49,340 bases of DNA from Candidatus Kerfeldbacteria bacterium (GCA_016204585.1 JACQKH010000007.1:1-49340), one strand, 5' to 3'. Counted from the stretch's first letter, positions 9,149-47,900 are shown. Notes: a model not told the origin generated them from the letters alone. Made by a program: numbers and translations.

Positions 9149-9198
9149 ATTGTTTAGGTCCTCCTTAAAAATATCGTCATTTTTATGTTGTTTAATGC

Positions 9199-10714: not shown

Positions 10715-13700
10715 TTACTCCACGGTTACGTACTTCGACTTGAGCGCGCCGTCGCCGTTCGAGTTCGTCACGATCAAGTTGCACTTGCCAGCGGTCAGGC
10801 CGGTGGCGTCGAGTACGAGGTTAAGTTGCGTGGTGCTCTTGAAGGTGACTAATGCTCCGGTGTCGCAAACTTGGACCGACGTATTCGGCTCGAAGTTCTT
10901 TCCTTTCAGGGTCAGCTTAGCGCTGCTGTTGCTGGAAGAGACGCTGGTCGGGGACAAGCTCTTAATTACCGGCGCCGGCACGCTGAAGCTGATGGTGCCG
11001 GATTTGGCTTTCAGGTACGAAGCCAGGGACGACTTCGTGGTCTTGAACCCGCCGCGCTTGTAGCTGTAAACCTGGACATTTCCGATCGGCTTATTAGCAG
11101 CGTCGAAGTAGGCCACCACCAGACTGGATGTACCAGTACCAAGATCCATCGCCGCGGCTACGGTTTTCGTCGTTCCGGACGCCTTTACCGCCGGTGCGTT
11201 CACCTTGAGGGACTTGGCTTTGCCCTTGCTCAGGTCGTAGACGCGAGTTTCTAATCCCTTGGCTGAGCCAATAATCAAGTCTTTCTTCCCGTCCTTGCTC
11301 AAATCCTCAAGGATGAGCGATTGAGCCGGAACGGCCGTAATCTTTTGTGTCAGCTTGCCAGCGGTGCTGTAGATCTTGACCGTATTGTCGGCGTCAGAGC
11401 CAGCCACGATAACTTGGGTTTTACCGACCAGGGCCGTCTTGACGGTCACCGTTCCCTTAGTAAACGGTGTGACCTTTTTACTGCCAACAGTGAAGGAAGT
11501 CTTCTTCGTCTTCTTGTTGGTGGAGACGCTGACGGTCTTGAGCTTGGCGCTGCTGCCGCCGGAGTTCAGGGCGGTGTAGGCGGAGAAGTGATCAGCCGAG
11601 AATGTGATGGCGACGTCGCCGTTGTCCAGCTCGCTGACCGTGGCATCGGACTCATTGGTGTACGAACCGGTCGAATCGTCGTAGCTGGCCGCACCCAAGG
11701 CCGAGGTATCGTCAATGCCTTCCTCGGCCAGGCCTTCATCCTCCAGAACTATCTTGAACGTCACTGGCTGCTGCAGGTCAGTAACCGTTTGGCCGTTTTC
11801 GTCGCGGGCCGTCACCTCGTAGGCCACGCCGACCCGTTCGCCGCCGCTGGTTGAGCCGGTGTCCACGGTCGGGGTAGCGGTGATGCTGCAGGTGCCGCTG
11901 TCAGTTGTGATAGCGGAAGCCGGAACGTTGAGCGTGGTGCCGTTGTCAAGGGCGACTGACGTCTGGGTAGTGCAATCGAAGTTAGCGGTCACTGGTTGTG
12001 GCACCCTGAATTTACCTTCTTCAAGCGCAATGTCCAGCTTGACTTTTTTCTCCGTCGTCACCACCACGGACTGTTCATCCGCGCCGTAGAAGGTTGAGCC
12101 GTCAACGCTGTCCGCGCCAACATGCCAGGTCGTGCCTTTAGTGATGTTGAGCTTGTATTGGCCGCCGGGGTTGCAGGGCGTGCCGCTGAAGCTGCCGTCG
12201 TTCGCCCAGGAGTGGACGAAGCAGCGGTCAGCCGGATTCTTGCCGATGGTGACCTTGCCTTCGATGGTGGCATCTGAAGTCCGGGCTTGCAGGACCACGT
12301 TGCATGTTTTGGAGCTGTTCAGCTCGCAGGTGACTTCTTTGGGCGGCATGCCACCGCTCCTTGGATCCAGTCCACCACCGACCTTATACACGTGTCCGCT
12401 TAATACGTTAAGCTCGAACTTACCGTCCGGACCGGTTGGCCCGCCAGCGCGAATGGCATTGTCAAAGCCAGCTGGACCGCCAGGACCGGGTGACTTAGAA
12501 GATCCCCCGGGACTAGTGGCCAGAGCAGCCACTCGCTTAGTTCCAATTCGCACGTTCAGTGCTCCTTCCGGCGGCTTGAACTTCGAACACTCACTAAAGT
12601 TCTCCGGCTTCGAACAGTAGGTTTTACACTCGGTTTCGGATTTGCAGCCACCCGGACCGACGAAGTTGTCGCCCGGTCGGGGACCCGACGGTTGCTGACC
12701 CTCCTGGGCATCCTTGCAGATGGTGGGGTCGCTCTTACACTGTTGGACGCAGCTGTAGGCATTCTTGCAGCCGTTCGGCCCGTCTGGAACCGGGAAGGCC
12801 TCGCACTGCGTCTTGTTCTTGCTGTCGCTGCAGCACTTTATCACGCCGTCAATGTCAGTAGCGCCGCAGGGCATTTTCTTGTTAAATCCGATATCCGCGC
12901 CCTTTCCCGTACCAGGACCGGGACCCTTGCCCGGCTCACCTTGACGCAGCTCGCGCGACTCGCGGATTTCGTCGCGGTTTTCCGCGAACACGAATCCTTG
13001 AGTCGGCTTTCCGTCCGGTCCGAGGAAGACGCCGGTAATCTTGGCATCGGCTTTGGCAATTGTAATGTTCCTTTCAACGTTTTGTCCGGACAGCACAAGC
13101 ACCTGGTCTTCCGGCGACGGTGGCTTGTTCATCACGCCTGATTTCGGGTCAAAATTCGTGCCGATTTGATAACTGCCGGCCACCAGACTGATCTTGTAGG
13201 TGCAGTCGCTCTTGACTTCACCTTGGTAGTGAGCGCCAACGCCGATCGCATCCGCGAACACCATGCCCCGGAAATCCGAGCAGTTGCTGATCGGGAAGCC
13301 GCTGGAGTCAACGATCTTGCCGCTGATGGACGAGTTATTGGCAACCACTTGCAGATCAACCTGCGCCGTTCCATTAGCAGCCACCGTTACTTTTTGCGGA
13401 GTGGAACATGAACGATCGCTGTTCGGTGGGGTATGACAGCCAACCTCCCATTGGGTGGCCACGGTTGTGGCAACCTTGATGGTGAAGGTGCCGTTGTTAA
13501 TCGGGCTGCAGCTCTCGCTGAATGAGCCGACCGCCCGGGCAAAAGCGCAACCCGGGAAATTCGTTACTGGCTGAAGAGTATCGGCATCCATTACCCGACC
13601 GGTAATAGTAGCGTCAGCCTGCTGAACTGTCATGTTCAAACAGGAGTAATCGGAAGACGTAACCACCGAAGTGTCTGTTGGTACGCTAATGTCGCATGGC

Positions 13701-15088
13701 TTCATTTCGGTCGGCACAAAGTTCGAATCCGGAGACATTCCCAGGTGAACGCCCCAGGTGCCAGCGGTTACGGCCAGTTCGTAATTCCCAGACGAATCGG
13801 TCCGCGCATTGCTCCAGCCGCCCGGTCCGCCACCCGTGCCCGGCTGCATCATCATGTTCGCATTCACTTCCACGTTTCCGGCAGCCGCCCCACCGGAAGT
13901 CGCAACCCGGCCGCGAATCTTCGCTTCTTTGGCAGTGGTTACCAGATTCACGGTTACGGTTTGATTATCCCCCACCGTGACGCTGGTCGGCGGAATGGTC
14001 TTGTCGTTTAGCGGCGTCCACAGGAAGAGATTATAAACCCCTGGCGTGACGTTCACGGAAAAACAACCGTCCGCACCCAGCGGTGTACCGCTGCCCCGGC
14101 CATCTTGCGTACGGACGTCAACGTTGCCGCTGGTGACGGCCGCGCCGTTCTTGTCCTTGATACAGCCGACGACTTTCGATGAGGTGGTTTGAACGGTAAA
14201 GTTTACGGTTTTTGATTCTGCGGTGGCGTCTTCAGCAAAGCTAACGGCGGGCGGCGGATCGGAGTAGATCCAGTCGGCCCCCGGATCTGGCATTGGCTGA
14301 ACATTCCACGTTCCGCCGCTGACCGACAGCGTATAATTACCATTGACATCAGTATGCGCGTTAGCCCAGCCGCCGCCGCTGGGCTTAAAAGCGTTGACGT
14401 TGGCTTGGGCCGCCGCGCCGCTGGAGTTCATGACTTTGCCGGTAATCGTCTTGGCCGCGCCGACAAAAATGAAGTTCTTCTCCACCACCGTGTTGCCGAG
14501 CGTGACATTCTCCGATGCGGGAGGGGTCAGGCCGGAAACGTTGAAATCGGGCATGGCTTCGGCCACGTAGGTGCCGGCCGCCAACCCGCCCAGCTTATAG
14601 TTACCGCTGTCATCGGCGTTGGCATGCGCAAAAACCGAAAAGTCTTGACTATGGACGTTGATATTACACCGGACACCTGTTACGCCGTCCGGTTTCAAAC
14701 AACGACCCTTCAGCTGGGCGTTGGTCACTTTTGGATTGAAGGTTGTCGATTGGTCCGGGTAGACGTCAATGTCAACCTCGGTCGATGGTGAGAAGGTCGA
14801 AGTCGGTAGTGGTCTGGCTTGGCACTTGTAATGACCGGCGTTGAGACTGAGGTTAAACGTGCCATTGGTTGCTGACTTCGTTCCGTTGCCGCCGGTCTGA
14901 CCAAAGCAGTTGATGTCAACTTCTTCGGCTAGGGTCGTACCGTCAGGTTTCTGGACGGTGCCGGATACGCCGCTAACGGCCATGGCCGTTTCCGGTCCAG
15001 GCAAGTAGGAAATCCAAACAAAAACCGCCATGACCAAACCGCCGACCAGCGTGGCGGTGATCTTGAGTGCTTTAGACGTGCTGTTCAT
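10715..15088 (-). CDS. very large cell-surface protein (1457 aa) with carboxypeptidase-regulatory-like beta-sandwich repeats, a 12-Cys module, FG-GAP/VCBS-like region and C-terminal IPT/TIG-like domain
   Basis: N-terminal TM/signal anchor. Many ~90-aa repeats of the pattern G.V....G.....A.V.........T...G.Y.L....G.Y. Cys-rich block at about 12587-12874. C-terminal PVIKSLSP...LTLKGKNF...V..TNSNG (IPT/TIG-like). GGAGG RBS before ATG 15088. Confidence 0.8.
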   Translation of the reverse strand: MNSTSKALKITATLVGGLVMAVFVWISYLPGPETAMAVSGVSGTVQKPDGTTLAEEVDINCFGQTGGNGTKSATNGTFNLSLNAGHYKCQARPLPTSTFSPSTEVDIDVYPDQSTTFNPKVTNAQLKGRCLKPDGVTGVRCNINVHSQDFSVFAHANADDSGNYKLGGLAAGTYVAEAMPDFNVSGLTPPASENVTLGNTVVEKNFIFVGAAKTITGKVMNSSGAAAQANVNAFKPSGGGWANAHTDVNGNYTLSVSGGTWNVQPMPDPGADWIYSDPPPAVSFAEDATAESKTVNFTVQTTSSKVVGCIKDKNGAAVTSGNVDVRTQDGRGSGTPLGADGCFSVNVTPGVYNLFLWTPLNDKTIPPTSVTVGDNQTVTVNLVTTAKEAKIRGRVATSGGAAAGNVEVNANMMMQPGTGGGPGGWSNARTDSSGNYELAVTAGTWGVHLGMSPDSNFVPTEMKPCDISVPTDTSVVTSSDYSCLNMTVQQADATITGRVMDADTLQPVTNFPGCAFARAVGSFSESCSPINNGTFTIKVATTVATQWEVGCHTPPNSDRSCSTPQKVTVAANGTAQVDLQVVANNSSISGKIVDSSGFPISNCSDFRGMVFADAIGVGAHYQGEVKSDCTYKISLVAGSYQIGTNFDPKSGVMNKPPSPEDQVLVLSGQNVERNITIAKADAKITGVFLGPDGKPTQGFVFAENRDEIRESRELRQGEPGKGPGPGTGKGADIGFNKKMPCGATDIDGVIKCCSDSKNKTQCEAFPVPDGPNGCKNAYSCVQQCKSDPTICKDAQEGQQPSGPRPGDNFVGPGGCKSETECKTYCSKPENFSECSKFKPPEGALNVRIGTKRVAALATSPGGSSKSPGPGGPAGFDNAIRAGGPTGPDGKFELNVLSGHVYKVGGGLDPRSGGMPPKEVTCELNSSKTCNVVLQARTSDATIEGKVTIGKNPADRCFVHSWANDGSFSGTPCNPGGQYKLNITKGTTWHVGADSVDGSTFYGADEQSVVVTTEKKVKLDIALEEGKFRVPQPVTANFDCTTQTSVALDNGTTLNVPASAITTDSGTCSITATPTVDTGSTSGGERVGVAYEVTARDENGQTVTDLQQPVTFKIVLEDEGLAEEGIDDTSALGAASYDDSTGSYTNESDATVSELDNGDVAITFSADHFSAYTALNSGGSSAKLKTVSVSTNKKTKKTSFTVGSKKVTPFTKGTVTVKTALVGKTQVIVAGSDADNTVKIYSTAGKLTQKITAVPAQSLILEDLSKDGKKDLIIGSAKGLETRVYDLSKGKAKSLKVNAPAVKASGTTKTVAAAMDLGTGTSSLVVAYFDAANKPIGNVQVYSYKRGGFKTTKSSLASYLKAKSGTISFSVPAPVIKSLSPTSVSSSNSSAKLTLKGKNFEPNTSVQVCDTGALVTFKSTTQLNLVLDATGLTAGKCNLIVTNSNGDGALKSKYVTVE

Positions 15089-28647: not shown

Positions 28648-29031
28648 TCACGACCGTAGCTTTGTCCGAACGAAGGTACCAAACATAACCGCCAAGGTCA
28701 CCGCTACGATAGTGACGATGATGACGCCGACCGTGAACTGGGCGGCCCGCTTGAATTTGGCATAGGAATCGAGGTAGGTGTCGCCGCGCCGGCGAGCATA
28801 GCGAGGAAATGTCGCTTGCGGGGCACCGGTCAGGTACAGCGGCACGCTCACCAGGTTGACTATCAGGCCGAGGATCACCTGAAGCGCCCATAGGAACGGA
28901 ATCATCGCCAAATGCGAGACCGTCGGTTGAGCGGCGGCGTGCCGGCGTTCAACCACCAGGCGGTCATAAACATCGAGTAAGATCCAGCGAATCTGGCGTA
29001 AGCGGGAATGGACTTGGAGTTCGTCAGTCAT
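28648..29031 (-). CDS. small 2-TM membrane module (127 aa), homologous to the N-terminus of the 1266-aa protein
   Basis: PLYLTGAPQATFPRYARRRGDTYLDSYAKFKRAAQFTVGVIIVTIVAV aligns with PLHLIWSPQQSFQKMARRHGNGEYLDSYSALIRQNRLAVISTTLLLLAAG of 44982-48782. Starts 3 nt after the stop of the 1136-aa gene. Confidence 0.65.
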   Translation of the reverse strand: MTDELQVHSRLRQIRWILLDVYDRLVVERRHAAAQPTVSHLAMIPFLWALQVILGLIVNLVSVPLYLTGAPQATFPRYARRRGDTYLDSYAKFKRAAQFTVGVIIVTIVAVTLAVMFGTFVRTKLRS

Positions 29032-29034: not shown

Positions 29035-32000
29035 TTAACTCGCCACCACGCTGACGACCATGTTGATGTCGTAGTCGCTGGCCACCGGCTGCTCTTTCGG
29101 AACGGTTTGCGAGATGCTGACGTTGGTTAAATCCCAGTAGCAGTTGGTGCCCGCGCTCGCGCCGGCCGTGAGCAGCGTTACCGAATTTGTCACGCCTTCG
29201 TTGAAGGCAGTAGATGACCCGAGTGTTAAGCCGGTGGTGTTACAGCCGGACTGGGGCGTAATGGTGGCGCCGGATGGATTGACGGTCATCTGGCCGCCGA
29301 CCGTGTCCGTGTCCCCGCCGTCGCCGGCATTGGCGGTCGGGTCGTTGAAGTCGTAGTCAGTGCCGACGCTGTCCCAGACCGCCGTCGTAGCCGAGGCGGC
29401 GACGCTTAAGGTCCAGGTCGCCGTGGCCGTGGTGTTGGTGACCCGGACTTTTTGCGATGAAACACCAAAGGTGCCGGTCGAGGTTTGGACCGTAAAAGCC
29501 AACGACAAAGTACTCATCACCATCGAGGGGCTGGCGACCGAGGCGCCGCCGCTGTCAACGATGTCGACGGTTAAGCTTCCGCCGCCTCCGACCGCCGATT
29601 CGCTCCACTCGAACAAAAACCGGAATCGAACGAGCGCGTCACCGGCTGTAGCTTCCTGGTAGAGGGCGAGACCTTCGCCGGGTTTGAGAATCAGTTCGTC
29701 GCCGAAAACGATTTCACTGTCATAATCGCCGCTGGCTTGGTTGACAACGCCCGGCACGGTCACGCCGAGCAGGCGGGAGTCGGTCACGCCGGCTAAGGTG
29801 ACCGTCACGTTCGTATGCCTGATTTCGGCGGTGGTATCCGAAGTACCAGAATGTTTCTTCGGGATGTTGGCGGCGGTGACCTGCGTGCCGGCGGAAGCGG
29901 CGGTCGTACGTCTGATGGTGACCGGAATATAGCCGGGCGCGGTCAGCGTCCCGCTGCGGTTAGCTTTGATACCAACTCGTTTGACGACGTAATTCTTGGA
30001 TGAGCCGGATGGATTGAACAGTGAGGTATAGACGTAATTGGCGCTGGTCGAACCGTTGACCGGGCCGGTCGTCATCATGAATTCTCCTTCGGATGCGGGC
30101 GTGCTGCCGGATGCGACTTCCTGCCACTCGATCAGCAGCTTGACCCGGAAGTCAGCGTCTCCAGCCGAAGTATCGTGATAGAGGCCTATACCTTCGCCGG
30201 GCTGCAAGATGATTTGCTCATCGTTCTTGTACAGCTGTTCAACGTAGCCGGTCACGGCCGGAGCAATGGCCGAGCCGACCGCGCCCGGCGTTTGCAGGCC
30301 GAGCAGTTTCGAATCGGCCGTACCGGCATAGGTGGCGGTCACACCGGTTCGCCTGATTTCCATAGCGCTGTTGGCCGTGCCCGTGTGTTTTTTCGGTACG
30401 TTGGCCGCGCTGATGAGCGTGCCCGACGAAGCTGCGCTGATTCGGCGCAGCTGCATCGGGATATAGACTGCGGCCGCGATCGTATCCACCCGGATGCTGA
30501 CGCGTTTGACCACCGCAGTTTTTCCGGAGGCAGCCGGATTGAAGAGGGTGGCGTAGTTGTAGCTGGTGGCCGTGCTGCCGTTGATCGGTCCGATATCAGC
30601 CAGGTACTCGCCGGCCGAAGACGGGGCCGAAGCTTCCTCATCCCATTCAATTAACATTTTTACGTACTGGTCAACGTCGCCGGCCAGGACGTCAAGGTAG
30701 AACCCAATGCCTTCGCCCGGCTGCAAAACCAGTTTTTCATTGTCGCTAAAAGCAATCTCCCGCTGGCCGATGATCTGGCCAACCGCGCCCGGGCCGTTGA
30801 CTTGAAGCAGATCCGAATCGGTGGTGCCGGCATACGTGGCAGAAATTGCCGTGCCGCAGGTCGCCCCGCACCAACGCACTTCGGTCACGGCATTGGCCGT
30901 GCCCGTATGTTTTTTGGGCAGGTCGCTGGCGGTAATGAGCGTTCCGCCGGAAGCCGCAGTGACGCGCCGGAGATTGAAGGCCGAATACGTGGCGGCCCCG
31001 TCGGCATTGTTGCGGATAGCAATTCGCTTAACCACGGCGGTTTTGCCTGAAGCTGACGGATTGAAGAACGTGAAAAAATTCGTGTTGAGCGCGGCCGCGA
31101 CTTCCACCCGTGATGAAGCCCACAGGTATTCACCTTGCGACGCCGGCGTGCTGCCGGACGCGACTTCTTGCCATTCGACGATCATCCGGTTGAGCTGGTT
31201 GGCATCGCCGGTCGCATCGGACATCAGGGCGATTCCTTGACCGGCCTGCAAAATAAGCTGCTCATCGTTGGCTTCGAAATTCAGTGTCATCCAGCCGTGC
31301 GGCTGCCCAGCCACCGCACAGGGGGTGACGATGCCAAGACGGGCGTCCGATCCGCCAACGGCCGTGACGGTCACGCCGGTATGCCGGAACTCCATGACGC
31401 TGTTGGCGCTGCCAGTGTGTTTTTTGGGTACGTTGGAAGCGGTGATGGCCGTGCCGGCCGAGGCGGCGCTGGTTCTCCGCAGCACGATATTATTGGTGTA
31501 GACCGCCGCCGCGTCGCAGGTTTCACTGCCAAACCATATTCTTTTGACGATCGCAGTTTTACCCGAGGCGGCCGGATTGAAAAAGGAATTGTATACGTAA
31601 TTGGCGGCCGCGGCGTTCCCAACGCGAGGAAAGGCAAACAGGAATTCGGTTTGGGCCGACGGCGCGCTCGCGACTTCTTCCCATTCGACGTAGACACGAA
31701 TCCGCTGGTCAGCGTCGCCGGCTGCTTCTTGATAGACGGCGATGCCTTCACCTGGCTGCAGCACAATGTTTTCGTCGCTGCTGCCGAAAGTAATATCCCG
31801 AATGCTGTGGAATTGCCCGGCCGCGCCGGGCATGGCCTGGCCCATGATTCTTGAGTCAGTGACGCCGGCCAACGTGACGGTCGCGCCGGTGTGCCGGACT
31901 TCGGTGACGGCATTGGAAGAGTCATTGTGTTTTTTTGGGATATTGGCGGCGGTAATTTGGGTACCGGCTGACGCCGCCGTGGTACGCCGGACGCTCAAGT

Positions 32001-32385
32001 TCACGTAGGTGGCAGCGGCGACGGCATTAGCCCGTACGGCGATTCGCTTAATGACCGCCGTTCGTCCGGACCCCGACGGATTGAAGAACGAAGCGTACAC
32101 GTAGTTGGCGCTGGTCGAACCGTTAACCGGTCCGATGTCCACGGCATATTCCAACTCGTTCGAGTCTAAGGCCGCCTGGGCTTCTCGGATTCCGAATCGG
32201 AAGTTGTCGACGACCTTCGGGTTCTGCTTGGCCAGGAAGATTTTGTCGACGACTCCGCCTCCGCGCTTGGCTCGGCCGTCCTTGAACGTCAACGCCAGCG
32301 AGACCGGATCCAAGCCGGTGGCCAGAAGCGAAACAGTCAGCAGCCCGACCGCGGCTGTTCTAGCGAGCCTGCGCCACATACTCAT
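29035..32385 (-). CDS. large secreted protein: signal peptide + five ~172-aa repeats of unassigned type + C-terminal WxL-like domain
   Basis: The repeats share NY.Y..(F)FNP(S/A).SG(K/R)TA(V/I)(V/I)KR(I/V)......Y.....RR...AS.GT.(I/V).A.(N/D)(I/V/L)PKKH.......E(V/I/F)R..G.......D(S).L.......(L)QPGEGI......GD......(E)W.E. The last 179 aa are homologous to 35234-35935 and 37339-37980. ATG 32385 (or 32379) gives a signal peptide; the ORF-track start at 32445 is further upstream. Confidence 0.8.
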   Translation of the reverse strand: MSMWRRLARTAAVGLLTVSLLATGLDPVSLALTFKDGRAKRGGGVVDKIFLAKQNPKVVDNFRFGIREAQAALDSNELEYAVDIGPVNGSTSANYVYASFFNPSGSGRTAVIKRIAVRANAVAAATYVNLSVRRTTAASAGTQITAANIPKKHNDSSNAVTEVRHTGATVTLAGVTDSRIMGQAMPGAAGQFHSIRDITFGSSDENIVLQPGEGIAVYQEAAGDADQRIRVYVEWEEVASAPSAQTEFLFAFPRVGNAAAANYVYNSFFNPAASGKTAIVKRIWFGSETCDAAAVYTNNIVLRRTSAASAGTAITASNVPKKHTGSANSVMEFRHTGVTVTAVGGSDARLGIVTPCAVAGQPHGWMTLNFEANDEQLILQAGQGIALMSDATGDANQLNRMIVEWQEVASGSTPASQGEYLWASSRVEVAAALNTNFFTFFNPSASGKTAVVKRIAIRNNADGAATYSAFNLRRVTAASGGTLITASDLPKKHTGTANAVTEVRWCGATCGTAISATYAGTTDSDLLQVNGPGAVGQIIGQREIAFSDNEKLVLQPGEGIGFYLDVLAGDVDQYVKMLIEWDEEASAPSSAGEYLADIGPINGSTATSYNYATLFNPAASGKTAVVKRVSIRVDTIAAAVYIPMQLRRISAASSGTLISAANVPKKHTGTANSAMEIRRTGVTATYAGTADSKLLGLQTPGAVGSAIAPAVTGYVEQLYKNDEQIILQPGEGIGLYHDTSAGDADFRVKLLIEWQEVASGSTPASEGEFMMTTGPVNGSTSANYVYTSLFNPSGSSKNYVVKRVGIKANRSGTLTAPGYIPVTIRRTTAASAGTQVTAANIPKKHSGTSDTTAEIRHTNVTVTLAGVTDSRLLGVTVPGVVNQASGDYDSEIVFGDELILKPGEGLALYQEATAGDALVRFRFLFEWSESAVGGGGSLTVDIVDSGGASVASPSMVMSTLSLAFTVQTSTGTFGVSSQKVRVTNTTATATWTLSVAASATTAVWDSVGTDYDFNDPTANAGDGGDTDTVGGQMTVNPSGATITPQSGCNTTGLTLGSSTAFNEGVTNSVTLLTAGASAGTNCYWDLTNVSISQTVPKEQPVASDYDINMVVSVVAS
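29575..32157 (-). repeat. five tandem coding repeats (167, 173, 173, 176 and 172 codons)
   Basis: Boundaries counted from the translation: aa 97-263, 264-436, 437-609, 610-785, 786-957 (numbered from ORF-track start 32445). Confidence 0.8.
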
Positions 32386-33364
32386 AAATTTCTTTGGCGA
32401 TGTCGGTGAACAAACGGTTGACCGCTGCCTGGCCGTCAGCAGCATCGCCTTTTTGCTGGATCATGACGGTCAGCATGTACGGCCGGCCGGGCAGGTAGAC
32501 GATGCCGGAGTCGGCCCAAACTCGTTCGTCAATTCGGATACCGGTTTTATGGACAAAAACCACGTCGGACGGAAGACCGGCACTGAGATCTTCGCGCGAC
32601 GCGTCTTTCAAAATGTTCAGGAATACATTGGAATATTCGGGGGTCAGGTAGGTGGCATTGTAGAGCGAACGGAAAAAGATTGAATAACGCTTGGCCGTGA
32701 TCCGGTTGTCCGCTTCGGCGCCTTTGGGCGTTTGCTTGAGCGCGTCGATGATGTCGTCCATGCCGAGGTGCGTGTAAACATCCTCCAGTTCGCTGCCGTC
32801 GAGATTGCGCAGTAGCACGAAGTGGGCGGTGTTGTCGGAGTTGACGAGCGATTCGCGTAAAAACTCCTCAATCGTCATGGTCGTGCCGGTGGGTTGTTTG
32901 TAGAGTTCGCCGAACTCGCTGTCTTTGTCATCGTCGAGGATGACCAGCTGGTTGTCCAGTTTCCAGGCGTTGGTATCGACTTTTTTCATGGCCGCCATGG
33001 CCACCGGGATTTTAATCAAGCTGGCCGGCCAGATTTTTTCGTCCTTGTTGATTGAGACGTTGGCGCCGGTCGGCAGGTATTCGAAGTACAGCGAGACCAG
33101 GTAGTCGTCGCGCCGCTCGTACTTTTCGGTCAAGCGGTCCCGCAGCGACTGAAAGTTGACGAGCAGGTCCTTTTTTTCGATCAAGGCGGCGCTCGGATTC
33201 AACAGGGAATACTGGCTTTGAGAACCGACCGGGCCCGACTTTCGGTTCGGTACGTAGACAGTATAGGTGAGTATGAGCGCTGCGACGGCCAACCCCAGCC
33301 AGAGTTGGTACGCTCGCAGCGTTTTCTTGCTCGCCCCGTTAAGTTGGTTGGAATTGTCGTTCAT
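32360..33364 (-). CDS. class-A beta-lactamase-like serine hydrolase with N-terminal membrane anchor
   Basis: S-x-x-K (ASLIK), SDN (NSDNTA) and KTG (HKTGIR) motifs in canonical order. TM LWLGLAVAALILTYTVYV. ATG 33364 preferred, alternative GTG 33400. Confidence 0.7.
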   Translation of the reverse strand: MNDNSNQLNGASKKTLRAYQLWLGLAVAALILTYTVYVPNRKSGPVGSQSQYSLLNPSAALIEKKDLLVNFQSLRDRLTEKYERRDDYLVSLYFEYLPTGANVSINKDEKIWPASLIKIPVAMAAMKKVDTNAWKLDNQLVILDDDKDSEFGELYKQPTGTTMTIEEFLRESLVNSDNTAHFVLLRNLDGSELEDVYTHLGMDDIIDALKQTPKGAEADNRITAKRYSIFFRSLYNATYLTPEYSNVFLNILKDASREDLSAGLPSDVVFVHKTGIRIDERVWADSGIVYLPGRPYMLTVMIQQKGDAADGQAAVNRLFTDIAKEIYEYVAQAR

Positions 33365-33386
33365 GGTCAGACTGAGATCTGTGACG

Positions 33387-33683
33387 TTACTTCTTCCCAC
33401 GAGCCGTCAATTGACTGTTTAATGCTGACATCGCTGATGGTAAACGGTGCCGGGCGCCGGCGGCCACGGTGCTGCCCTCGCTGCCGAAAACACCGCTGGC
33501 CCAATCGCGGGTGCGAGGCGTGGTCACCGTACCTTCGCCGTAGACGATTTTACCGTCGCCTTGGGCCAGCGCCTGGGCGGGCGAGGGCAAGAGCAAGACG
33601 GGGAGGATCAATGACCACTGGCTGATCAGCGCCAATCCCGCGACCACAGATGCCGGGAACCGAATCGCGGAACGGCGCGCCAT
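33387..33683 (-). CDS. small secreted protein (98 aa), hypothetical
   Basis: ATG 33683 preceded by GGAG. Signal peptide MARRSAIRFPASVVAGLALISQWSLILPVLLLPSPAQA. The ORF-track start at 33809 overlaps the upstream gene. Confidence 0.45.
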   Translation of the reverse strand: MARRSAIRFPASVVAGLALISQWSLILPVLLLPSPAQALAQGDGKIVYGEGTVTTPRTRDWASGVFGSEGSTVAAGARHRLPSAMSALNSQLTARGKK

Positions 33684-33694: not shown

Positions 33695-35098
33695 TTAAGC
33701 GGTAATTCGAGGCGGTTGGGGCCGGCTCCCTGGCGGTGACAGAAGCGACACGCCCGCAGTCAGCTGGTACGGCGCAGCTAAACGGTTGACCCTGGCCAGC
33801 AGTTTCCATGAAACACCCCAGCGTTTGGCCAGCTCTTGGATGGTATCGCCAGTTTCCACGCGGTACCGCACCCAGGTCGCGCTAATGAGCTGACGGCGTT
33901 TGCGCGCGAGCATAGTGAGACCGACCAACAGCAGGAGCAGCAACAGCGCCGCGGCCATGATGATGAGCGCCGATCTGGTCGGCCAGAGGAAAAAGCGGAC
34001 CGTCGGTCCGGTTAGGGTGGTTAAGCTGGCGTTCGCTCCCGGGCCACTGCCTGTATCCGGATTGTATGCCACGGTCAGCGCGGTGGTGTACCATCCGCCC
34101 CAGAACGTTTGCGGAAATTCGAAGTTCCAGGCGCTGGTCTGTCCGCGGAGGATGGTGTACTGGCCGCCGTGGCGCATGGCCGTCCGACCGAACAAATTTT
34201 TTGTGACCACGGCAACCTCGGCGTCGACCGACACGTTGCCTTCATTGCGCACGCTCGGACGAAGGACTTTGCCGCCGGGCGTTCTCGGCCGAACCTCGAA
34301 ACCGGCAATGGCGAGCTGGCGAACTATGTCGCCGGGGACGGTCACCGCCACGCGCAGACCGGTTCTGGTAGAAATGAGAACTCCCTCGCCACCGGCGACC
34401 GGCGGCTTCTTTTCCTGGATGAGCAGACAGCCGTCGTGCTCGCCGACTCCGGCAGTCCCGGGGACCGCCAGCCGGAACGGCACCAGGATTTTCGTCTGGG
34501 GAGCCAGCGTCAAGGCAACCGGCTGGAGCGGATCGTAACCGCTAACAATCTCTTGCTGATCAGTGAAACCGTCGCCGTCTGTATCGACCAGCTTTGGATT
34601 CGTCCCGCGCTGCGCTTCATCAGTCGCGGTCAGGCCATCGCCATCTTCGTCCGAGTCGTCTGTCGGGGTTGTCGTTGGTGGCGTGAAAAAACTGTCGGCG
34701 GTAACTTCGGGCGGCAGCGTCGCTCCGGCCTCAAGCGCTGGCTGAGGTTGACCCAAGGTAATCCACGCGCCAGCGTCTTTCTTGGTTGCCGAGGCTCCCT
34801 GATTTGAGGCGGACAATTGCTCGCAAGCAAACCCGCCGTCGCTCGACGGCGTGGCGTCAGCCGAATACACCCAGACTGTTTTTGTTTGGTCGGTCGTGTT
34901 GATGACGAACATTCCATCAGCCACGGTTTGCCCCGGCTCAACAGTGTAAACGAAGATATCGTTGGTTCGGGGATTATCAGGCCGCGGAAAGGCCGGCCGG
35001 CCGCCGAGGCCGCCGTAAGAAATTGCGACGGCCGGCAGGGCGGCGAGGAGCGTCGCCAGTGCAGCCACGACGGAAACCAGAAGCCGAGAAAAGCTCAT
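33695..35098 (-). CDS. CscA-like (DUF916 + DUF3324-like) surface protein with thrombospondin-type-3 Ca-binding repeats, one TM and a C-terminal LysM
   Basis: Signal peptide. YGGLGGRPA...VYSADATPSSDGGFA (DUF916-like). DSDEDGDGLTATDE...DTDGDGFTDQQE (TSP3-like). VPFRL.VP...GVGEH.GCLLI...VPGDIVRQL (DUF3324-like). TM ALIIMAAALLLLLLLVGLTML, then RKRR, then LysM (YRVETGDTIQELAKRWGVSWKLLARVNRL...L.AG). Confidence 0.7.
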   Translation of the reverse strand: MSFSRLLVSVVAALATLLAALPAVAISYGGLGGRPAFPRPDNPRTNDIFVYTVEPGQTVADGMFVINTTDQTKTVWVYSADATPSSDGGFACEQLSASNQGASATKKDAGAWITLGQPQPALEAGATLPPEVTADSFFTPPTTTPTDDSDEDGDGLTATDEAQRGTNPKLVDTDGDGFTDQQEIVSGYDPLQPVALTLAPQTKILVPFRLAVPGTAGVGEHDGCLLIQEKKPPVAGGEGVLISTRTGLRVAVTVPGDIVRQLAIAGFEVRPRTPGGKVLRPSVRNEGNVSVDAEVAVVTKNLFGRTAMRHGGQYTILRGQTSAWNFEFPQTFWGGWYTTALTVAYNPDTGSGPGANASLTTLTGPTVRFFLWPTRSALIIMAAALLLLLLLVGLTMLARKRRQLISATWVRYRVETGDTIQELAKRWGVSWKLLARVNRLAAPYQLTAGVSLLSPPGSRPQPPRITA

Positions 35099-35233: not shown

Positions 35234-35935
35234 TTAGGAGGCGACGACTGACAACACCATGTTGATGTCGTAGTCCGAAGCGGCTGGCTGCTCTTCCGGA
35301 ATCTTCTGGCTGACCGACACGCCGGTTAATTTCCAGTCGCCGATGTCGTTCGAGGCGGCGGCGGCGGTCAGAACCGTGATGCTGTTGGTGGTGCCCTCAA
35401 GGAACGCGGTCGACGAGCCTTTGGTAATGTTGGTGGTGACGCAGGAGTTACACTGACCGGTTGCCAGCGTGCCGACTGACGGATCAACGGTCATCTGCCC
35501 GCCGAGCGTGTCGGTGTCGGCGCCGTCAGTACAACCCGAGCCGCCATTATCGTTGAAGTCGTAGTCCGTGCCGGCGCTGTCCCAAATGGCGGTGGTGGCG
35601 GAAGCGGCCAGCGAGGCGGTCCAGCCGTTGTCCGCCGCATCCGGGTTGGAGACGTAAATGTTCTGCGAGGCCGAGCCGAACGTGCCGGTGATGGTCTGAC
35701 AGGTAAAGCTGAAGGTGGCCGTTGACATCGTTACGGACGGACTGCCGACCGTTACATACGAGCCGTCAACAATATCAATCGCCAAGGAACCGGCATTGAT
35801 GGTCTGCTGGAAGTTCGAAGTGGAGCTGGCGTAGACGTAGGTGCCGGCGCCGCTCACCAATACCAAAATTCCCACGATCGCGATGACCGCGCGGAGGTTC
35901 AGTTTCCAAAGGAGCGCGTGGGTGAACTTACTCAT
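35234..35935 (-). CDS. secreted WxL-like domain protein (233 aa from ATG 35935)
   Basis: Signal peptide MSKFTHALLWKLNLRAVIAIVGILVLVSGAGTYVYA. QQTINAGSLAIDIVD...GWTASLAAS...DYDINMVLSVVAS. Homologous to 37339-37980 and to the C-terminus of 29035-32385. Confidence 0.7.
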   Translation of the reverse strand: MSKFTHALLWKLNLRAVIAIVGILVLVSGAGTYVYASSTSNFQQTINAGSLAIDIVDGSYVTVGSPSVTMSTATFSFTCQTITGTFGSASQNIYVSNPDAADNGWTASLAASATTAIWDSAGTDYDFNDNGGSGCTDGADTDTLGGQMTVDPSVGTLATGQCNSCVTTNITKGSSTAFLEGTTNSITVLTAAAASNDIGDWKLTGVSVSQKIPEEQPAASDYDINMVLSVVAS

Positions 35936-35993: not shown

Positions 35994-36022
35994 AGTATAG
36001 CACAAAAAATAAGCCTTGTCAA
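35994..36022 (-). promoter_or_regulatory. promoter of 35234-35935
   Basis: Minus strand: TTGACA (36017-36022), 17 nt, TATACT (35994-35999). Confidence 0.65.
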
Positions 36023-36060: not shown

Positions 36061-37317
36061 TTAGGAACCGATCGGCACCTTGATAGTTTGACCGGCTTTG
36101 AGCCGATACGGCGGCTTAAGACCATTGGCCTTAGCCAGTACCCGCCAGTCAATACCGCGGCGTGAGGCAATGTCAACTAAGTCTTCGCCTGGGCGGACAA
36201 CGTAGGGACGCCACTGTTTCAAACGGCCGCGGTCGCGTCCTCGCCGCCACAGCCAGAGCGCAATGATGGCGACGGCGACGAGCATGACTACGGCGATTTG
36301 CAGCCAAGGCACAAACCAGCGGACGATGGTCGGTGTCATCAGCCTTTGGCCGGCGCCGTCGGTATCCGTGTAAGCAACCTGCGCTTGGTAGGAGAAACGG
36401 CCGAAGCGGGGCAGGGGCAGCGAAATATTGGTGATCAATTCTTGGCCACGTAGCGCTTGCGTCGCGCGTTCGACGGTTTGACTGCTTCGCCTAAAAATCG
36501 TATCGCTTACGGACAGCGTGGTCGTGTGATCTATACTGACATTGCCCGCGGCTAGCACGCCGACGGTGGCGACAAGCTCTTTTTGTCGAGCGTTCGGATG
36601 AATGGTAAAACGTGTTAGCTCAAGTTGACGGACGATGTCGCCGGGCACGGTTTCGTAGATGCGGACGCCGACGCGGGTGGTTAGCTGGACGCCGCCCGAC
36701 GGCGCGCTCGGTTCGTCGGCCGGCCGTTTCCGCTCCAGCACTAAACCGCCGGCATGCTCGCCAACGTCGGCGTTGTCGGGAATGCGGATGACGAACGGCA
36801 CGGCAACGGCTTGGTCAGGTTCGAGGCGGATGGCGGCTTCCCGAACGCCGCCGCACCAAGTCTTGAGTTCAGAAACGTCGGCGGTCGGCGCGGCCTGGGC
36901 CGCCTGCACAACGGCAAATTGGCAGAGCTCGGGAATCGAGCGCCGGTCTTCGGCGTAAGCGACCGGACGCGGCGTCGGGTACAACGTCACCCACGAACCA
37001 AGTTCGGTCATAGTTTCGGCCCGTTGCTTAAGAGCAAAGCCGCCGTCCGAACTGGGGGTTTGGTCGGCCGGGTAGACGATGAGTTCAACGGCCGCGCCGC
37101 TGCCGTTCTCGATCCGGAGCGCGTCTTCCTTGGTGGCGCCAGCCGGCAGCTGGTAGAGGAACCAGCTGGCGCTGTTCGGAACGTTCGGATCGGGGTTGGC
37201 CGGTCGGCCGCCGAGACCCTCGTACTCAATGGCCGAACCGGCGGCGGCGTACGCCAAGCCAAGCAGTGCGACGACGACGATGTTGAACGCTCGAAAACAA
37301 CGGTTAGCTTTCACCAA
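36061..37317 (-). CDS. CscA-like (DUF916 + DUF3324-like) surface protein with one TM and a C-terminal LysM
   Basis: Signal peptide. YEGLGGRPA...VYPADQTPSSDGGFA. VPFVIRIP...DVGEHAGGLVL...VPGDIVRQL. TM IAVVMLVAVAIIALWLW, then RRGRDRGR, then LysM (YVVRPGEDLVDIASRRGIDWRVLAKANGL...L.AGQ). TTG/GTG start. Confidence 0.7.
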   Translation of the reverse strand: MVKANRCFRAFNIVVVALLGLAYAAAGSAIEYEGLGGRPANPDPNVPNSASWFLYQLPAGATKEDALRIENGSGAAVELIVYPADQTPSSDGGFALKQRAETMTELGSWVTLYPTPRPVAYAEDRRSIPELCQFAVVQAAQAAPTADVSELKTWCGGVREAAIRLEPDQAVAVPFVIRIPDNADVGEHAGGLVLERKRPADEPSAPSGGVQLTTRVGVRIYETVPGDIVRQLELTRFTIHPNARQKELVATVGVLAAGNVSIDHTTTLSVSDTIFRRSSQTVERATQALRGQELITNISLPLPRFGRFSYQAQVAYTDTDGAGQRLMTPTIVRWFVPWLQIAVVMLVAVAIIALWLWRRGRDRGRLKQWRPYVVRPGEDLVDIASRRGIDWRVLAKANGLKPPYRLKAGQTIKVPIGS

Positions 37318-37338: not shown

Positions 37339-37980
37339 TTAGGTGGCGGTGAGCGCCAGACTTAGGGTATAGGCCGCCGGCGTTTGGAAAGCGGGAATCG
37401 TTTGGGTCAGGCCGACGCCGGTGAAATCCCAGCGGCCGGGTTGGTCAGCGCTGGTGCTGGCCGAGAGAAGCGTAATCGAGTCAGTGGTGCCTTGAGCAAA
37501 GGAGGTTGATGAACCTTTGGACAGACCGGTGCTGGTGTAGGAATTGGTCGGCGTGATAGTTCCGACCGAAGCGTCAACAGTCAGCCGGCCTTGCGCGGAA
37601 GAACCGTTAAAATCGAAGGTGTTGGAACCGCCGTCTGACCACAGCGCGGTGGCGCCGGAAGCGGCCGCCACCGTCAAATTCCAAGCCACGGCCGGCGCGC
37701 TGCGACCGTTGCTGAGACGGATTTTCTGTGATGACGCGCCCAGCGTGCCGGTTGAGTTTTGGACCGTATCAAAGTTGAAGGTTACCGCGCTGAACGCGAC
37801 CGACGGGCTGCCGACGGTAACGTTCGAGGCGTCGACGATGTCAACCCCGAGCGTCCCGGCGTTGATTGTTTGCGAGAGCTGCGTCTGACTCGAAGCAAAA
37901 ATTATCTGGGGAGGGAAACTCCAGCTGAACAACAGACTTACAATTAGTATTGCGACTTTTGTATTTCTAAGGCGTTTCAC
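37339..37980 (-). CDS. secreted WxL-like domain protein (213 aa)
   Basis: Signal peptide. SQTINAGTLGVDIVD...AWNLTVAAAS...AAYTLSLALTAT. GTG start. Confidence 0.65.
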   Translation of the reverse strand: MKRLRNTKVAILIVSLLFSWSFPPQIIFASSQTQLSQTINAGTLGVDIVDASNVTVGSPSVAFSAVTFNFDTVQNSTGTLGASSQKIRLSNGRSAPAVAWNLTVAAASGATALWSDGGSNTFDFNGSSAQGRLTVDASVGTITPTNSYTSTGLSKGSSTSFAQGTTDSITLLSASTSADQPGRWDFTGVGLTQTIPAFQTPAAYTLSLALTAT

Positions 37981-38030: not shown

Positions 38031-38059
38031 ATTATAGCCCATTTTTTGACCTTTGTCAA
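38031..38059 (-). promoter_or_regulatory. consensus promoter at the head of the surface-protein cluster
   Basis: Minus strand: TTGACA (38054-38059), 17 nt, TATAAT (38031-38036). Confidence 0.7.
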
Positions 38060-44981: not shown

Positions 44982-47900
44982 TTACCGCGTTGGTATGGTC
45001 AACACCCAGCCCGACTGAATCACATTCGGTTGCCGGACCAAACCGGGAAGCGCCTTGGCATTTTCTTTTACCAGCAACGGATAGAGATTGCCCGCGCCGA
45101 GGTAGCGCTCGGCAATCCGCCAGAGCGAATCCCCGGGCTGCACCGCGTATTTCAGGGTTTTGCCAACCTTTATCGTGGTTCGCTTGGCGTCAGTACCGAC
45201 AGTAAAGGTAATCTTCTGCCGCACGATGCTCGTCCGTCCGACCTCGTCGGTCGCCTGCACGTAGAGGATATGTTTCCCTGACTTGAACTCCTTCAGGGAG
45301 ATGGCCGCGGCAAAGCTCTTGGTTGATTTTGAATCGCCATCGACTTTAATGGTCTTGACCACCTTCCCGTCGACGTACAGGCGGAGCGTCTGTCCGCCCT
45401 TGGCCACGCCCGGCACGGTCAGCACCGGCTCCTGTCCGTCGCTGATGATGAGCGTGGTGACGGTCGGGGAAATCGCTCGGTTCTTCGTGGATTCGGGCGT
45501 GTTGGTGGTAAACGTGTCATCGTCAGTCACCGCCGTTGTCATACCGGTGCTGGTGATTTGGAAGTGGTAGGTCGTGCCGGAATCGAGGCCAGGTACTCGA
45601 AGCTGGTGGGCGGTAACGAGCTTGGTGTTAGATTTAACAATCCCGTAGGTGTCGGTCAGACCTAATCTAGCCTTCGAAGTCGCCGGTTCATTGGTCATCC
45701 AAATGAAAGTCGCCTCCGTTTCTCCGGCCACGACGCGAAGATTGCTGATGACGGTTTGGCCCGCTTCTGGTTGCGTCGTAAACGTGGCATCCGCATCCGA
45801 GTCAGTGGTGCTACCGGTTGATATTACTTCGTAGTGATAGGTAGTGTTCGGTTCGAGGCCGGTGATGGTCAGACTGTGCGAAGTCGCCAAGTTCAAGTCA
45901 GACGCCTCGCTTCCATAGTCAGTCGTTGGGCCGTAGCGCACTTTCGATGTGGCCGGTTCGTTGGTGGTCCAGGTGACGATAACCGAAGTTGAGCTCAAGA
46001 CCGCGACCTGGACGTTAGTGATGACCGTCATCGGCGTGGCCAGGGTAGTGAACGATAGATCAGTCGACACGGCCGCATTGCCAGCTTCATCCGTGCTCAA
46101 GGCCCGGGCGTGGAACTCGGTGTTCGTGGCCAAACCGCTCAAACTCACGCGGTGGCTCGTGGTCAGGCTGGGATCAAGCGTGGTCGTATTTCCATAACTT
46201 ACCGTTGTTCCCCATTCAACCTGCGTGCTGGCTGGTCCATTAGTCGTCCAGGTCAAGGTGGCGCTGTTGGTAGTGGTGGTGGCGACGAAGGACGAGATTA
46301 CCGGCGCCTGGGTATCTTTCAAAATGGTGAATACATCATCGACCTCGTTACTCAAGCCATCGAGGGCAAACGCCCGTACCGAAACGTAATTCGTTCCTTC
46401 TTGCAAGCTGGCAAAGTCCACGGTCCAGTTGATGGAATAACTATCGGTATCGGCCGTAAAAATGTTTGTCCAGTCCTTGAGCAGCGTCCCGGTCTTGCCG
46501 GCGCCGCTGTACACGGCGTACTGCCCATAATCGAGCTGCGGGCCGGCTGCGGCTTTGGCAAAATCGACGTCATAGGTCGTTCCGCTTGCCTTGCGAGGCG
46601 CAGTATCGCCAGTCTGGTTGTCGGAAATCGTCGGCAACGACGTGTTGACGGTGACGCCGTTTGAGGAGGTTGACGAACCGCTATTCCCGGCATTGTCCAC
46701 GGCTCGCGTCGAAACGTAGTAGGTCGTGCCGCTGGTTAACGATAACCCGGTCTTAGTGACACTGGTTGATGCGCCGTTGTCCGTGTACCCGAGAACTTGC
46801 GTTCCGCCCGATGTCGTGCCGATGGCGTACTGATATTTTGCAAGACCTGATGTCGTGTCCGTCGAGGCAGTCCAGTTCGCGGACAACTGGGTCAGGCTGG
46901 TCGAGTACGTGGCATCCGCGCCGGTGCCGTCGTTGACCGTAGCCGGGATGGTCGGATTCGTCGCGTCAAAGTAGTACGGACCGAAATCAGTGCCAGTACC
47001 GGTGGCCACGTCTTCCGTGTTGAACGACTGCAGGTGGAGATACCAGTTGTTACCGTCGACTGAAGCGGTCCGGCTCAAGCTCGTGCCGACGCTGGTACAA
47101 CTGCCGCCCGGACAGTTGGCGTTATTATTGCTCCAGGTGCTTTCCGAGCCGCTGAAGCTTTGGGTGACGCTTTGATTCCAGACGTAACGGTAATACTGCT
47201 GTCCACCAAGGAAGAAACCGTTCTGATCGTCAAACGTGAAGGTGCCGGTGTTGTACCAGGTCGAGGTCGCCCGGGTGCTGGTAACGTTCGGATTGGCCGC
47301 CAGGGTATACTTCGTTTGGCTGGCCGTGGTCGCGGTTTCATCGCTGTTGCCGTTCCGCGCTTTAACCGCGTATGGATTGGAAGTGTTTGGCGAAAGACCA
47401 GATTCGGTCCAGGCAGTCGTCTGAATCCAGCCGGAGTCGGTGGTGAGGTTGGTGTTTTGAAAGAACAGACCGGATGACCCGCTGGTCAGGTTCGACAACG
47501 TGCCGGTGGCCGTGACGGTAATGGAACTGGTGGTCACGTTGCTGAAACTGACGCCGGTCGGCGTTTCAATCGAGCTGTAGGCCGAGGCCGACGAGCTGTC
47601 GGTGTTGCCCTGAGCGTCGGTCACGTTGGCGTGGCGGGTGTATTGGGTGTTGGCCGATAGCCCGGTCTCAGTACAGCTGGTGCTATTCGCGGCCAGGTTG
47701 GTACAGCCGGTGACGTTGGCGTGGCTGGCGTTGTGGACGTCATACCGCGTCTCGGTGGCGGCGTTGTCAGTCCAGTTCCAGCTGACGCTGGTGGTGGTGT
47801 TGGCGGTGTGACCGAAGGCGGTGGGAGCCGGCGGCGGCGTGGTGTAGCTGATCACCAGCTGCGGCTTGTTCGACGACGCGTCCACCGAGCTGATGGCGCC

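Follow-up and report, generated by a model that had tools for sequence, protein, structure and literature searches.

A putative WxL-like surface locus of Candidate Phyla Radiation bacteria built around an undescribed domain family shared with tailed phages

Introduction

The WxL/Csc clusters of Firmicutes, whose WxLIP proteins correspond to DUF916/DUF3324 (PMC1534035, PMC9772566, PMC10599100), combine a small WxL protein, a large WxL protein and a WxLIP protein (PMC9772566, PMC10599100). Their definition asks for one or more WxLIP and two or more WxL proteins in a span of four genes (PMC10599100). A locus of comparable layout was found in a 49,340-nucleotide (nt) stretch of DNA, hereafter the window, from a Candidatus Kerfeldbacteria bacterium of the Candidate Phyla Radiation (CPR; GCA_016204585.1, JACQKH010000007.1:1-49340). 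Its central gene encodes a large protein, the five-unit protein, in which five tandem copies of a domain of about 172 residues (the unit) are preceded by a predicted signal or anchor helix and followed by a C-terminal tail domain. All window features described below lie on the minus strand.

The CPR accounts for a large part of bacterial diversity, and its members live attached to other cells. Their surface proteins are for the most part poorly understood; a survey of CPR type IV secretion systems states explicitly that no adhesins were found (10.1101/2025.01.22.634366). Three features of the locus stand out. The unit represents a domain family that has no Pfam, NCBIfam, PHROG or PDB assignment and is common to CPR cells and tailed phages. 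The protein made of these units has a fixed five-domain architecture, is conserved like ClpP and RNase Y, and appears to be coupled to an enzyme resembling penicillin-binding proteins (PBPs). The locus as a whole parallels, in CPR bacteria, the layout of the WxL clusters of Firmicutes, and the C-terminal domain of its large protein co-varies with small partners.

Gene and protein architecture

The longest open reading frame (ORF) in the ORF list spans 29035-32445 and encodes 1136 residues, of which residues 97-957, corresponding exactly to 29575-32157, form the five units. A first-pass annotation, made from this DNA alone, had numbered the protein from 32445. That ORF exists, but the true start is probably M23 at 32379, because the recorded gene call (P0001) has 1114 residues and because from this start the gene overlaps its upstream neighbour by 20 nt, as it does in relatives. 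The five-unit gene would thus occupy 29035-32379; an alternative ATG is found at 32385 in the junction sequence.

The N-terminus (MWRRLARTAAVGLLTVSLLATGL..., 32290-32379, limits approximate) reads as a basic n-region followed by a hydrophobic stretch. In the AlphaFold2 (AF2) model residues 2-21 are helical, and this segment is predicted to be a secreted-type signal or anchor. Residues 21-69 have a predicted local distance difference test (pLDDT) score below 50 and are predicted to be disordered. They include a short, near-invariant peptide (IVDKIFLAKQNPKVVDNF, 32200-32253), located between the helix and unit 1, in which D45, L49, A50, N53, V57 and D58 hardly change across the family (alignment A1). 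Conservation of a segment with no predicted structure suggests that this peptide is a candidate docking motif for a partner.

The units follow each other without gaps. Unit 1 (31657-32157) has 167 residues. Units 2 (31138-31656) and 3 (30619-31137) have 173 residues each and carry position-specific invariant cysteines, namely the pair C288/C354 in unit 2 (P0001 numbering) and C504/C508 in unit 3, which also has a WCGATCG insert. Unit 4 (30091-30618, 176 residues) by itself matches Streptomyces phage proteins in tblastn, and unit 5 (29575-30090, 172 residues) is the most divergent position across the family. The tail domain (29038-29574, 179 residues) contains invariant W-T-L and W-D-L motifs and is common to other proteins of the locus.

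The five units are fixed in number and position

The first-pass annotation described five tandem units of about 172 residues at these positions, and this description is borne out exactly. The five sequences align in register at boundaries of 167, 173, 173, 176 and 172 residues with 37 invariant columns, among them FNP, KR, RR, PKKH, the G.G of the PGEG turn, GD and EW.E. In BLASTP against its own protein, unit 1 retrieves the other four copies at E values of 1e-48 to 2e-57 and, beyond these, nothing below E = 6. Pairwise identity between units is 40-55% at the protein level and 52-61% at the DNA level. The repeat is far beyond chance, real and ancient. The shared signature reported earlier holds for PKKH, KR and the G.G of PGEG; the Gln and Pro of its QPGEGI motif vary even among the units of the window protein.

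The number of units does not change. A hidden Markov model (HMM) of the unit finds exactly five copies in all 120 homologues listed and in every untruncated ORF among 64 loci of species-representative genomes. In 80 of 80 comparisons a unit resembles its positional counterpart in other proteins more than any other unit, with identities of 51-67% for same-position units vs 35-46% across positions, and the positions hold invariant residues of their own, such as the Cys pairs of units 2 and 3. Taken together, the fixed number, the positional orthology and the position-specific residues indicate that the five-fold architecture is older than the divergence of CPR lineages and that the units are not interchangeable.

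Units 1 and 5 had been singled out as most alike. They are so in the window protein, where their identity of 54.8% is the highest among the 60 family members checked, but not family-wide: the median for this pair is 43.1%, the highest value outside the window protein is 51.2%, and the closest pair across the family is 1-4. In the window lineage, units 1 and 5 may have undergone partial gene conversion.

Conservation and distribution

Homologues of the five-unit protein, 52-84% identical and mostly of about 1100 residues, occur in the CPR groups Kerfeldbacteria, Moranbacteria, Parcubacteria/Paceibacterota and Gracilibacteria. Aligned over 1081 residues, the window protein and its counterpart in a Moranbacteria genome are 59% identical. 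In the same comparison the values are 67% for ClpP, 54% for RNase Y, 67% for the hydrolase encoded next to the five-unit gene (see below), and 34-44% for the other proteins of the locus. The five-unit protein is thus conserved at the level of housekeeping genes, which is unusual for a surface protein. Together with the fixed copy number, such conservation speaks against a fast-evolving adhesin and against a spacer, and it fits the earlier proposal that the units are more than a simple spacer.

The repeat-number variation and rapid, adhesin-like evolution that the first-pass annotation had considered are refuted by these data. The protein is large, predicted to be secreted and built of tandem repeats, and relatives have exchanged C-terminal modules, as might be expected of a fast-evolving, repeat-variable adhesin whose units serve mainly as a stalk. 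However, copy number is invariant at five, positional orthology is strict, the identity of 59% across CPR classes equals that of core genes, and the DNA identity between units argues against a recent, recombination-driven expansion. The characteristics of variable-number tandem-repeat adhesins were not found: the copy number is constant and the units are only 40-55% identical to each other. We consider this explanation extremely unlikely.

Some homologues come from bins that carry a DPANN or other archaeal label (Woesearchaeota, Nanoarchaeota, Pacearchaeota, Aenigmatarchaeota and Hadarchaeales; L045, L052, L056, L058, L060, L067 and L068). Most are 44-48% identical to the window protein, with higher values for L056 and L060, and the complete ones are long-tailed and have no hydrolase partner. 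The flanking genes of these loci do not discriminate between inter-domain sharing and mis-binning. Several carrier contigs are labelled Gammaproteobacteria, Pseudomonadales, Polynucleobacter, Planctomycetales or Bacteroidia despite a CPR-typical locus and are probably mislabelled (L009, L038, L048, L055, L059 and L069). One family member (P0074) is named 'nicotinamide riboside kinase' by a source, which is probably an annotation error.

Fold of the unit

The whole five-unit protein has no family match in Pfam, NCBIfam, PHROG or PADLOC, and no S-layer or SLH-type module of Pfam was matched in it. An NCBIfam aspartate kinase match (E 0.22) was dismissed as noise. Searches of PDB sequences with the full-length protein and with unit profiles gave chance-level matches only (e.g. 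an MCM-related protein at E 0.02-0.65).

The AF2 model of the full-length protein, computed with 80 homologues, is all-beta, with a pLDDT of 86.5 and a predicted template modelling (pTM) score of 0.78. The latter is high for 1114 residues and implies, at the level of the model, fixed packing between domains. A single unit modelled with 49 unit sequences (pLDDT 91.8, pTM 0.87) has the same ten strands as in the full-length model; each unit therefore appears to be self-contained. By its predicted structure, the unit is a jelly-roll.

A Foldseek search of the PDB with the unit returned single-jelly-roll virus capsids, 4-1BBL, the C1q head, a carbohydrate-binding module and the tail fibre of phage 7-7-1. 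Among the top 50 matches listed, TM scores do not exceed 0.47, E values are 6.6e-4 or higher, sequence identities are 5-14% and match probabilities are 0.9-0.99. The full-length model resembles the tandem jelly-rolls of single-chain C1q, PHM and PNGase F. When the single-chain C1q trimer is placed on three consecutive units, the fit is poor (target TM score, TMt, 0.26; root-mean-square deviation, rmsd, 15.7 Å). The first-pass annotation could not assign the unit to any family and would have yielded to a confident match to a characterised one. None was found in Pfam, NCBIfam, PHROG, PADLOC or PDB sequences, and the closest relatives of the unit, described below, are uncharacterised phage proteins.

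This structural information also suits a different role, in which the protein is a rigid, capsomer-like block, possibly a closed pseudo-pentameric ring, that tiles the envelope as a tail-anchored S-layer-type exoskeleton; its strong conservation would then reflect packing contacts and not a ligand site. The N- and C-termini of a jelly-roll lie at the same end of the fold, so short linkers favour side-by-side packing. Such packing agrees with a lattice, as do the fixed inter-domain arrangement implied by the pTM, the non-equivalence of units fixed by position, the capsid proteins among the best PDB neighbours of the unit, and the putative wall-anchoring tail with its several co-encoded tail-only proteins. 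S-layer proteins have, moreover, been reported in Patescibacteria in a structural survey (10.1101/2024.05.28.596244). However, neither self-assembly nor high abundance is indicated, Pfam detected neither SLH nor any other known S-layer module in the whole protein, and S-layer proteins usually diverge fast, unlike the five-unit protein. A closed ring is not indicated either, given how poorly the C1q trimer fits three consecutive units. We regard a lattice or shell as unlikely, but as an explanation of some weight.

Relatives in tailed phages

Much closer structural neighbours are found among predicted viral structures. A Foldseek search of BFVD with the unit model gave 103 matches at E <= 1e-3, the best being a protein of Streptomyces phage Coruscant (query TM score, TMq, 0.85; rmsd 1.9 Å; E 1.3e-13). 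Those of the 20 best matches that have a name are viral proteins of about 150-400 residues, all uncharacterised and nearly all from tailed phages. The structure prediction and Foldseek search proposed with the first-pass annotation thus led to a confident jelly-roll and to this phage family.

An exhaustive profile search with the unit produced 498 clusters at 50% identity. About two dozen of these are five-unit proteins of 863-3782 residues, many others are single-unit proteins of 160-216 residues, and longer proteins bear the unit at their extreme C-terminus. No signal peptide was found in the single-unit proteins inspected. The family retains a recognisable signature: FNPxGSGK, R.TAASGGT, EVR..NPTVT, PGEG, GDxD and W.E. 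In one protein (P0197) the N-terminal region matches phrog_1645, 'virion structural protein', at E 2e-32, with the unit at the C-terminus.

The unit was found by tblastn in cultured Streptomyces phages, whereas a locus search of viral contigs with P0200 gave no match. An HMM made from CPR units only matches gp42 of phage FlowerPower end to end (E 1.8e-12, positions 3-161 of 169), and unit 4 of the window taken alone matches RosePharie gp42 with 30% identity over 97% of the unit (E 2e-9). Sequence and predicted structure thus agree that the unit is homologous to a widespread family of tailed-phage proteins that is itself uncharacterised.

The genomic position of the phage genes differs between phages. 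In the Beephvirinae phages above, the gp42 gene follows the capsid gene and lies between a 'minor tail protein' gene and large genes matching tail-fibre PHROGs, upstream of the holin. In phage BRock the unit gene (gp150) is found between the terminase and portal genes. The Coruscant gene (HUN41_00113) sits among tRNAs, and its context is uninformative. A remote member of the family, with 24.8 bits to the single-unit HMM, is ORF57 of Pantoea phage LIMEzero (L075:24458-25033); a 191-residue LIMEzero protein, presumably the same ORF57, has a Foldseek TM score of 0.65. ORF57 is the last gene of this phiKMV-like genome, after the lysis genes, and membership of the phage family thus extends beyond virion gene blocks. 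PHROG (v4) gave no family match for the two phage proteins tested.

Homology to phage proteins could also mean that the five-unit gene is itself a phage gene, encoding a tail fibre or another virion protein, in a prophage or a mis-binned viral contig. This is barely credible. The protein has a predicted signal helix, housekeeping genes lie on both sides of the locus, and its synteny with the hydrolase, the tail-only proteins and the WxLIP-like proteins is kept in many CPR lineages. The protein and the neighbours tested have no PHROG or PADLOC match, and no five-unit form was seen in phage records.

It is also conceivable, and in our estimate very unlikely, that the five units form a closed single-chain pseudo-pentamer, a counterpart of a penton or capsomer domesticated from a phage virion protein. 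The protein would then be a core envelope element of ultra-small episymbionts (CPR and perhaps DPANN) and would act with the PBP-like enzyme at the host contact.

The C-terminal tail and its locus partners

The tail has three invariant tryptophans, W54 (in WTL), W67 and W147 (in WDL; alignment A3), and both of its Trp-x-Leu motifs lie on predicted strands (E989-995 and E1080-1085, AF2). Two conserved Trp-x-Leu motifs in a C-terminal beta domain are a trait of WxL proteins (PMC9772566), and the tail shares it. Pfam WxL (PF13731) matched neither the whole protein at E <= 1 nor ten representative tail types at E <= 10. A profile search with the window tail retrieved 594 CPR proteins, which are small and secreted; the 120 of them that were listed are all without a Pfam label.

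Tails vary between family members. At least eight types were found, some of them preceded by RCC1 propellers or by inserts of 700-1600 residues. These RCC1 beta-propellers or inserts lie between unit 5 and the terminal domain (among others P0030, P0035, P0042 and P0047, of about 1650 residues; L017, L034, L038 and L045-L062), and in several of these members the extreme C-terminal 150 residues are still found in a neighbouring gene.

In the window, two genes encode small secreted proteins that consist of a signal peptide and the tail domain only. The first (35234-35935, 233 residues, gene call P0287) is 60% identical to the tail of the five-unit protein and the second (37339-37980, 213 residues) is 42% identical to it (alignment A3). 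The small tail-only proteins alternate with LysM proteins of WxLIP_PGBD similarity. One of these (36061-37317, 418 residues) has a C-terminal LysM domain (43.9 bits) and a WxLIP_PGBD match of 20.2 bits, below the cut-off of 27.3; its Moranbacteria counterpart (L001) scores 35.5 bits, above the cut-off. The other (33695-35098, 467 residues) is a putative wall-binding protein with a TSP3 repeat (Pfam TSP3_bac) and a C-terminal LysM domain. It is a paralogue of the former, with 31% identity over about 430 residues. No DUF3324/HBD was found in the WxLIP-like window proteins, which have PGBD-like matches only and end in LysM; a WxLIP-like relative (L005:17051-18031) ends in a hydrophobic helix. The window thus has three proteins with the tail beside a WxLIP_PGBD match below the cut-off, and the tail is not a recognised WxL domain.

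The relation between the tail and the small proteins is not peculiar to the window. In four distant loci with four different tail types, the tail is in each case common to small secreted neighbours. Overall, 30 of 39 loci have neighbours that share the tail; in three of the other nine, hardly any sequence is available downstream. The unit HMM does not match the downstream tail-bearing proteins, so their N-terminal parts are unrelated to the unit.

The first-pass annotation called this region a WxL-like anchor. The term stands as an analogy, based on the Trp-x-Leu motifs, the shared tail and the WxLIP-like neighbours, whereas a Pfam WxL match is absent; 'WxL-like' is thus a supported analogy and not a proven homology. 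By the same analogy, the tail is probably a wall-attachment or assembly module.

A probably coupled beta-lactamase-fold hydrolase

The gene upstream of the five-unit gene (32360-33400) encodes a predicted membrane-anchored serine hydrolase of the beta-lactamase fold (PF13354, Pfam Beta-lactamase2, 132.7 bits). The end of this gene and the beginning of the five-unit gene have 20 nt in common (32360-32379). A hydrolase gene adjoins the five-unit gene in 32 of the 43 loci with a long ORF. In 26 of these 32, a start codon gives the same 20-nt overlap, and the spacing from the hydrolase stop to unit 1 is 191-209 nt. The junction recurs in L001, L003, L005 and L009-L062, with overlap length and spacing conserved across CPR classes, and this conservation suggests that the two genes are translationally coupled. 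Active-site motifs of the hydrolase are largely intact across loci: SxxK and SDN in 30 of 30, KTG in 28 of 30.

A partner of this kind opens the way to a purely housekeeping role with no link to host contact, in which the five-unit protein is a non-catalytic targeting subunit of the cell's own wall metabolism: the units would bind the cell's peptidoglycan or wall polymer and position the hydrolase for maturation or division. The conserved coupling to a hydrolase with intact SxxK/SDN/KTG motifs, the housekeeping-level conservation, the neighbouring genes for ClpP, RNase Y and a Mur ligase, and the LysM and WxLIP_PGBD-like predicted peptidoglycan binders of the locus all agree with such a role. 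However, a divergent clade keeps the five units without the hydrolase, the variable C-terminal inserts (RCC1 propellers, tails of 700-1600 residues) look outward-facing, and no wall enzyme is known to have such a partner. A role limited to wall metabolism is, in our view, rather improbable, though a reasonable candidate.

Other genes in the neighbourhood

In other loci, a third partner gene is found directly upstream of the hydrolase gene, or of the five-unit gene where the hydrolase is absent. Its product has a C-terminal domain of about 160 residues (consensus ...ELWLYD...FWLSEDKK...GERAEVKF...FYFYSEETGEVFSD...) that belongs to no Pfam family. Examples are L003:8279-9022, L005:6094-9000 (C-terminal part), L045:4114-5889 and L050:3901-5868, and there are at least 30 others. 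An HMM of this domain found no copy in the six frames of the window.

Two distant loci have, 3' of the five-unit gene, genes with a Dockerin type I match above the Pfam cut-off and a weak cohesin-like match (L003:14625-15704, L003:15701-16717 and L005:18040-18966), which hints at a second surface-assembly system in the neighbourhood. A possible link to CPR type IV secretion through HerA/VirB4-like ATPases, seen in L003 and L045, was discarded as a general feature: these ATPases recur in no other locus, and L055 is the L003 contig. The preprint on CPR type IV secretion systems does not mention the five-unit family (10.1101/2025.01.22.634366).

A perfect match to the sigma-70 consensus (TTGACA-17-TATAAT, 12 of 12 positions) at 38031-38059, upstream of the first gene of the minus-strand block, is a candidate promoter of the locus by consensus only. 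An 11 of 12 match with an extended -10 element is located at 35994-36022, upstream of the gene for the small tail protein at 35234-35935, and no comparable match was found directly upstream of the hydrolase gene. At the other end, 3 nt 3' of the five-unit stop codon, the ORF list has a 127-residue membrane protein (28648-29031), a candidate member of the locus without Pfam or PADLOC match.

The window encodes other large putative surface proteins: 10715-15088 (1457 residues, CarboxypepD_reg domains), 7157-9208 (683 residues, NHL repeats) and 44982-48782 (1266 residues, fn3 and a C-terminal LysM). Residues ~603-720 of the last are 39-42% identical to the long-tail inserts of the relatives P0031, P0045 and P0116.

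Proposed role

We favour a model in which the five-unit protein forms the large subunit of a CPR surface complex held at the wall, organised like WxL/Csc clusters and displaying a rigid five-domain binding array, and we hold it about equally likely to be right or wrong. According to this model, the protein would be exported through its N-terminal signal or anchor helix, and its C-terminal domain, which by itself makes up the mature part of one to four small secreted proteins encoded in the same locus, would hold it at the wall within a multi-protein complex. Judging from the architecture and from published work on WxL, the tail would most likely dock on peptidoglycan and/or on the WxLIP-like LysM proteins. 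Between the two ends, five self-contained jelly-rolls would be held in fixed packing, with each position an orthologous lineage of its own.

The unit shares ancestry with tailed-phage proteins that are either stand-alone proteins of about 170 residues, some of them encoded in virion/tail-fibre blocks, or extreme C-terminal domains. Because of this common ancestry, we read the five units as candidate ligand-binding modules of the receptor-binding-knob type. If the ten predicted strands follow the canonical jelly-roll assignment, the conserved loops FNPxGSGK, IPKKH and AGDxD would lie at one end of the sandwich. An anionic envelope polymer is a plausible ligand, since the Lys/Arg cluster is more pronounced in CPR units than in those of phages. 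The five-unit protein and the hydrolase would then probably act together on peptidoglycan or on a wall-linked polymer, either the cell's own or that of the host.

Several observations weigh against this model. The relatives in phages are uncharacterised too, and their genes do not always lie in structural modules, as LIMEzero ORF57 and the Coruscant gene show. Receptor-binding domains normally diversify fast, whereas the units are conserved like housekeeping proteins, so a conserved ligand or a structural role fits better than host-range adhesion. The tail has no detectable homology to Pfam WxL, either among the ten tail types or in the tail profile search. The small and large proteins of the locus carry one and the same domain, whereas true WxL types differ structurally, and the WxLIP match in the window is below the Pfam cut-off. 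The placement of the loops on one face and the geometry between units derive from strand order only. Finally, 11 of the 43 long-ORF loci, mostly of a divergent long-tailed clade, have no hydrolase partner.

Whichever function applies, the locus supplies testable candidates for the building of the CPR surface or for host attachment, and it is the first cellular context for a widespread, uncharacterised family of phage proteins.

Comparison with known systems

At the level of the fold, C1q/TNF heads and the single-jelly-roll capsids of plant and insect viruses share the general eight-stranded jelly-roll topology with the unit. The likeness is limited to the fold class, and nothing indicates that the units assemble as trimers do. 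Tandem jelly-rolls in one chain, as in the five-unit protein, are found in PNGase F, PHM and engineered single-chain C1q, but these have two or three copies and not five. FlowerPower gp42, RosePharie gp42, BRock gp150 and Coruscant HUN41_00113, which have the signature in common with the CPR unit, are by contrast true homologues. Unlike the CPR protein, the phage relatives have one copy per protein and no signal peptide, and their Lys/Arg motifs (KR, RR and PKKH) are weaker.

The partner enzyme is akin to class A beta-lactamases and low-molecular-weight PBP-like hydrolases, with which it shares a strong Pfam match and the SxxK, SDN and KTG motifs. It differs from class A beta-lactamases in its predicted N-terminal membrane anchor and in its probable coupling to a surface protein of five predicted jelly-rolls.

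As a whole, the locus compares best with the WxL/Csc clusters. In both, a large secreted protein with extra domains before its C-terminal domain is encoded together with small proteins made of that domain. An Ig-like peptidoglycan-binding protein is encoded alongside in WxL clusters, and its window counterpart has WxLIP_PGBD similarity. In the WxL domain, as in the tail, two conserved Trp-x-Leu motifs lie on beta-strands. The differences are equally clear. True small and large WxL types are structurally distinct, with about 106 and 68 residues between the motifs, while the small and large proteins of the window share one domain with 42-60% identity and about 93 residues between the motifs. WxLIP proteins of WxL clusters have an HBD and a transmembrane helix, whereas the WxLIP-like proteins of the window end in LysM, and the window locus has no LPxTG partner. 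More than 91% of known WxL proteins are from Firmicutes, whereas the five-unit locus is found in CPR. Unlike WxL clusters, this locus has a beta-lactamase-fold hydrolase that appears to be coupled to the large protein, and its N-terminal cargo is five copies of a new, highly conserved domain, in contrast to the variable cargo of WxL proteins. Overall, the locus is a variation on a familiar type of surface system that draws on a domain family not described before.

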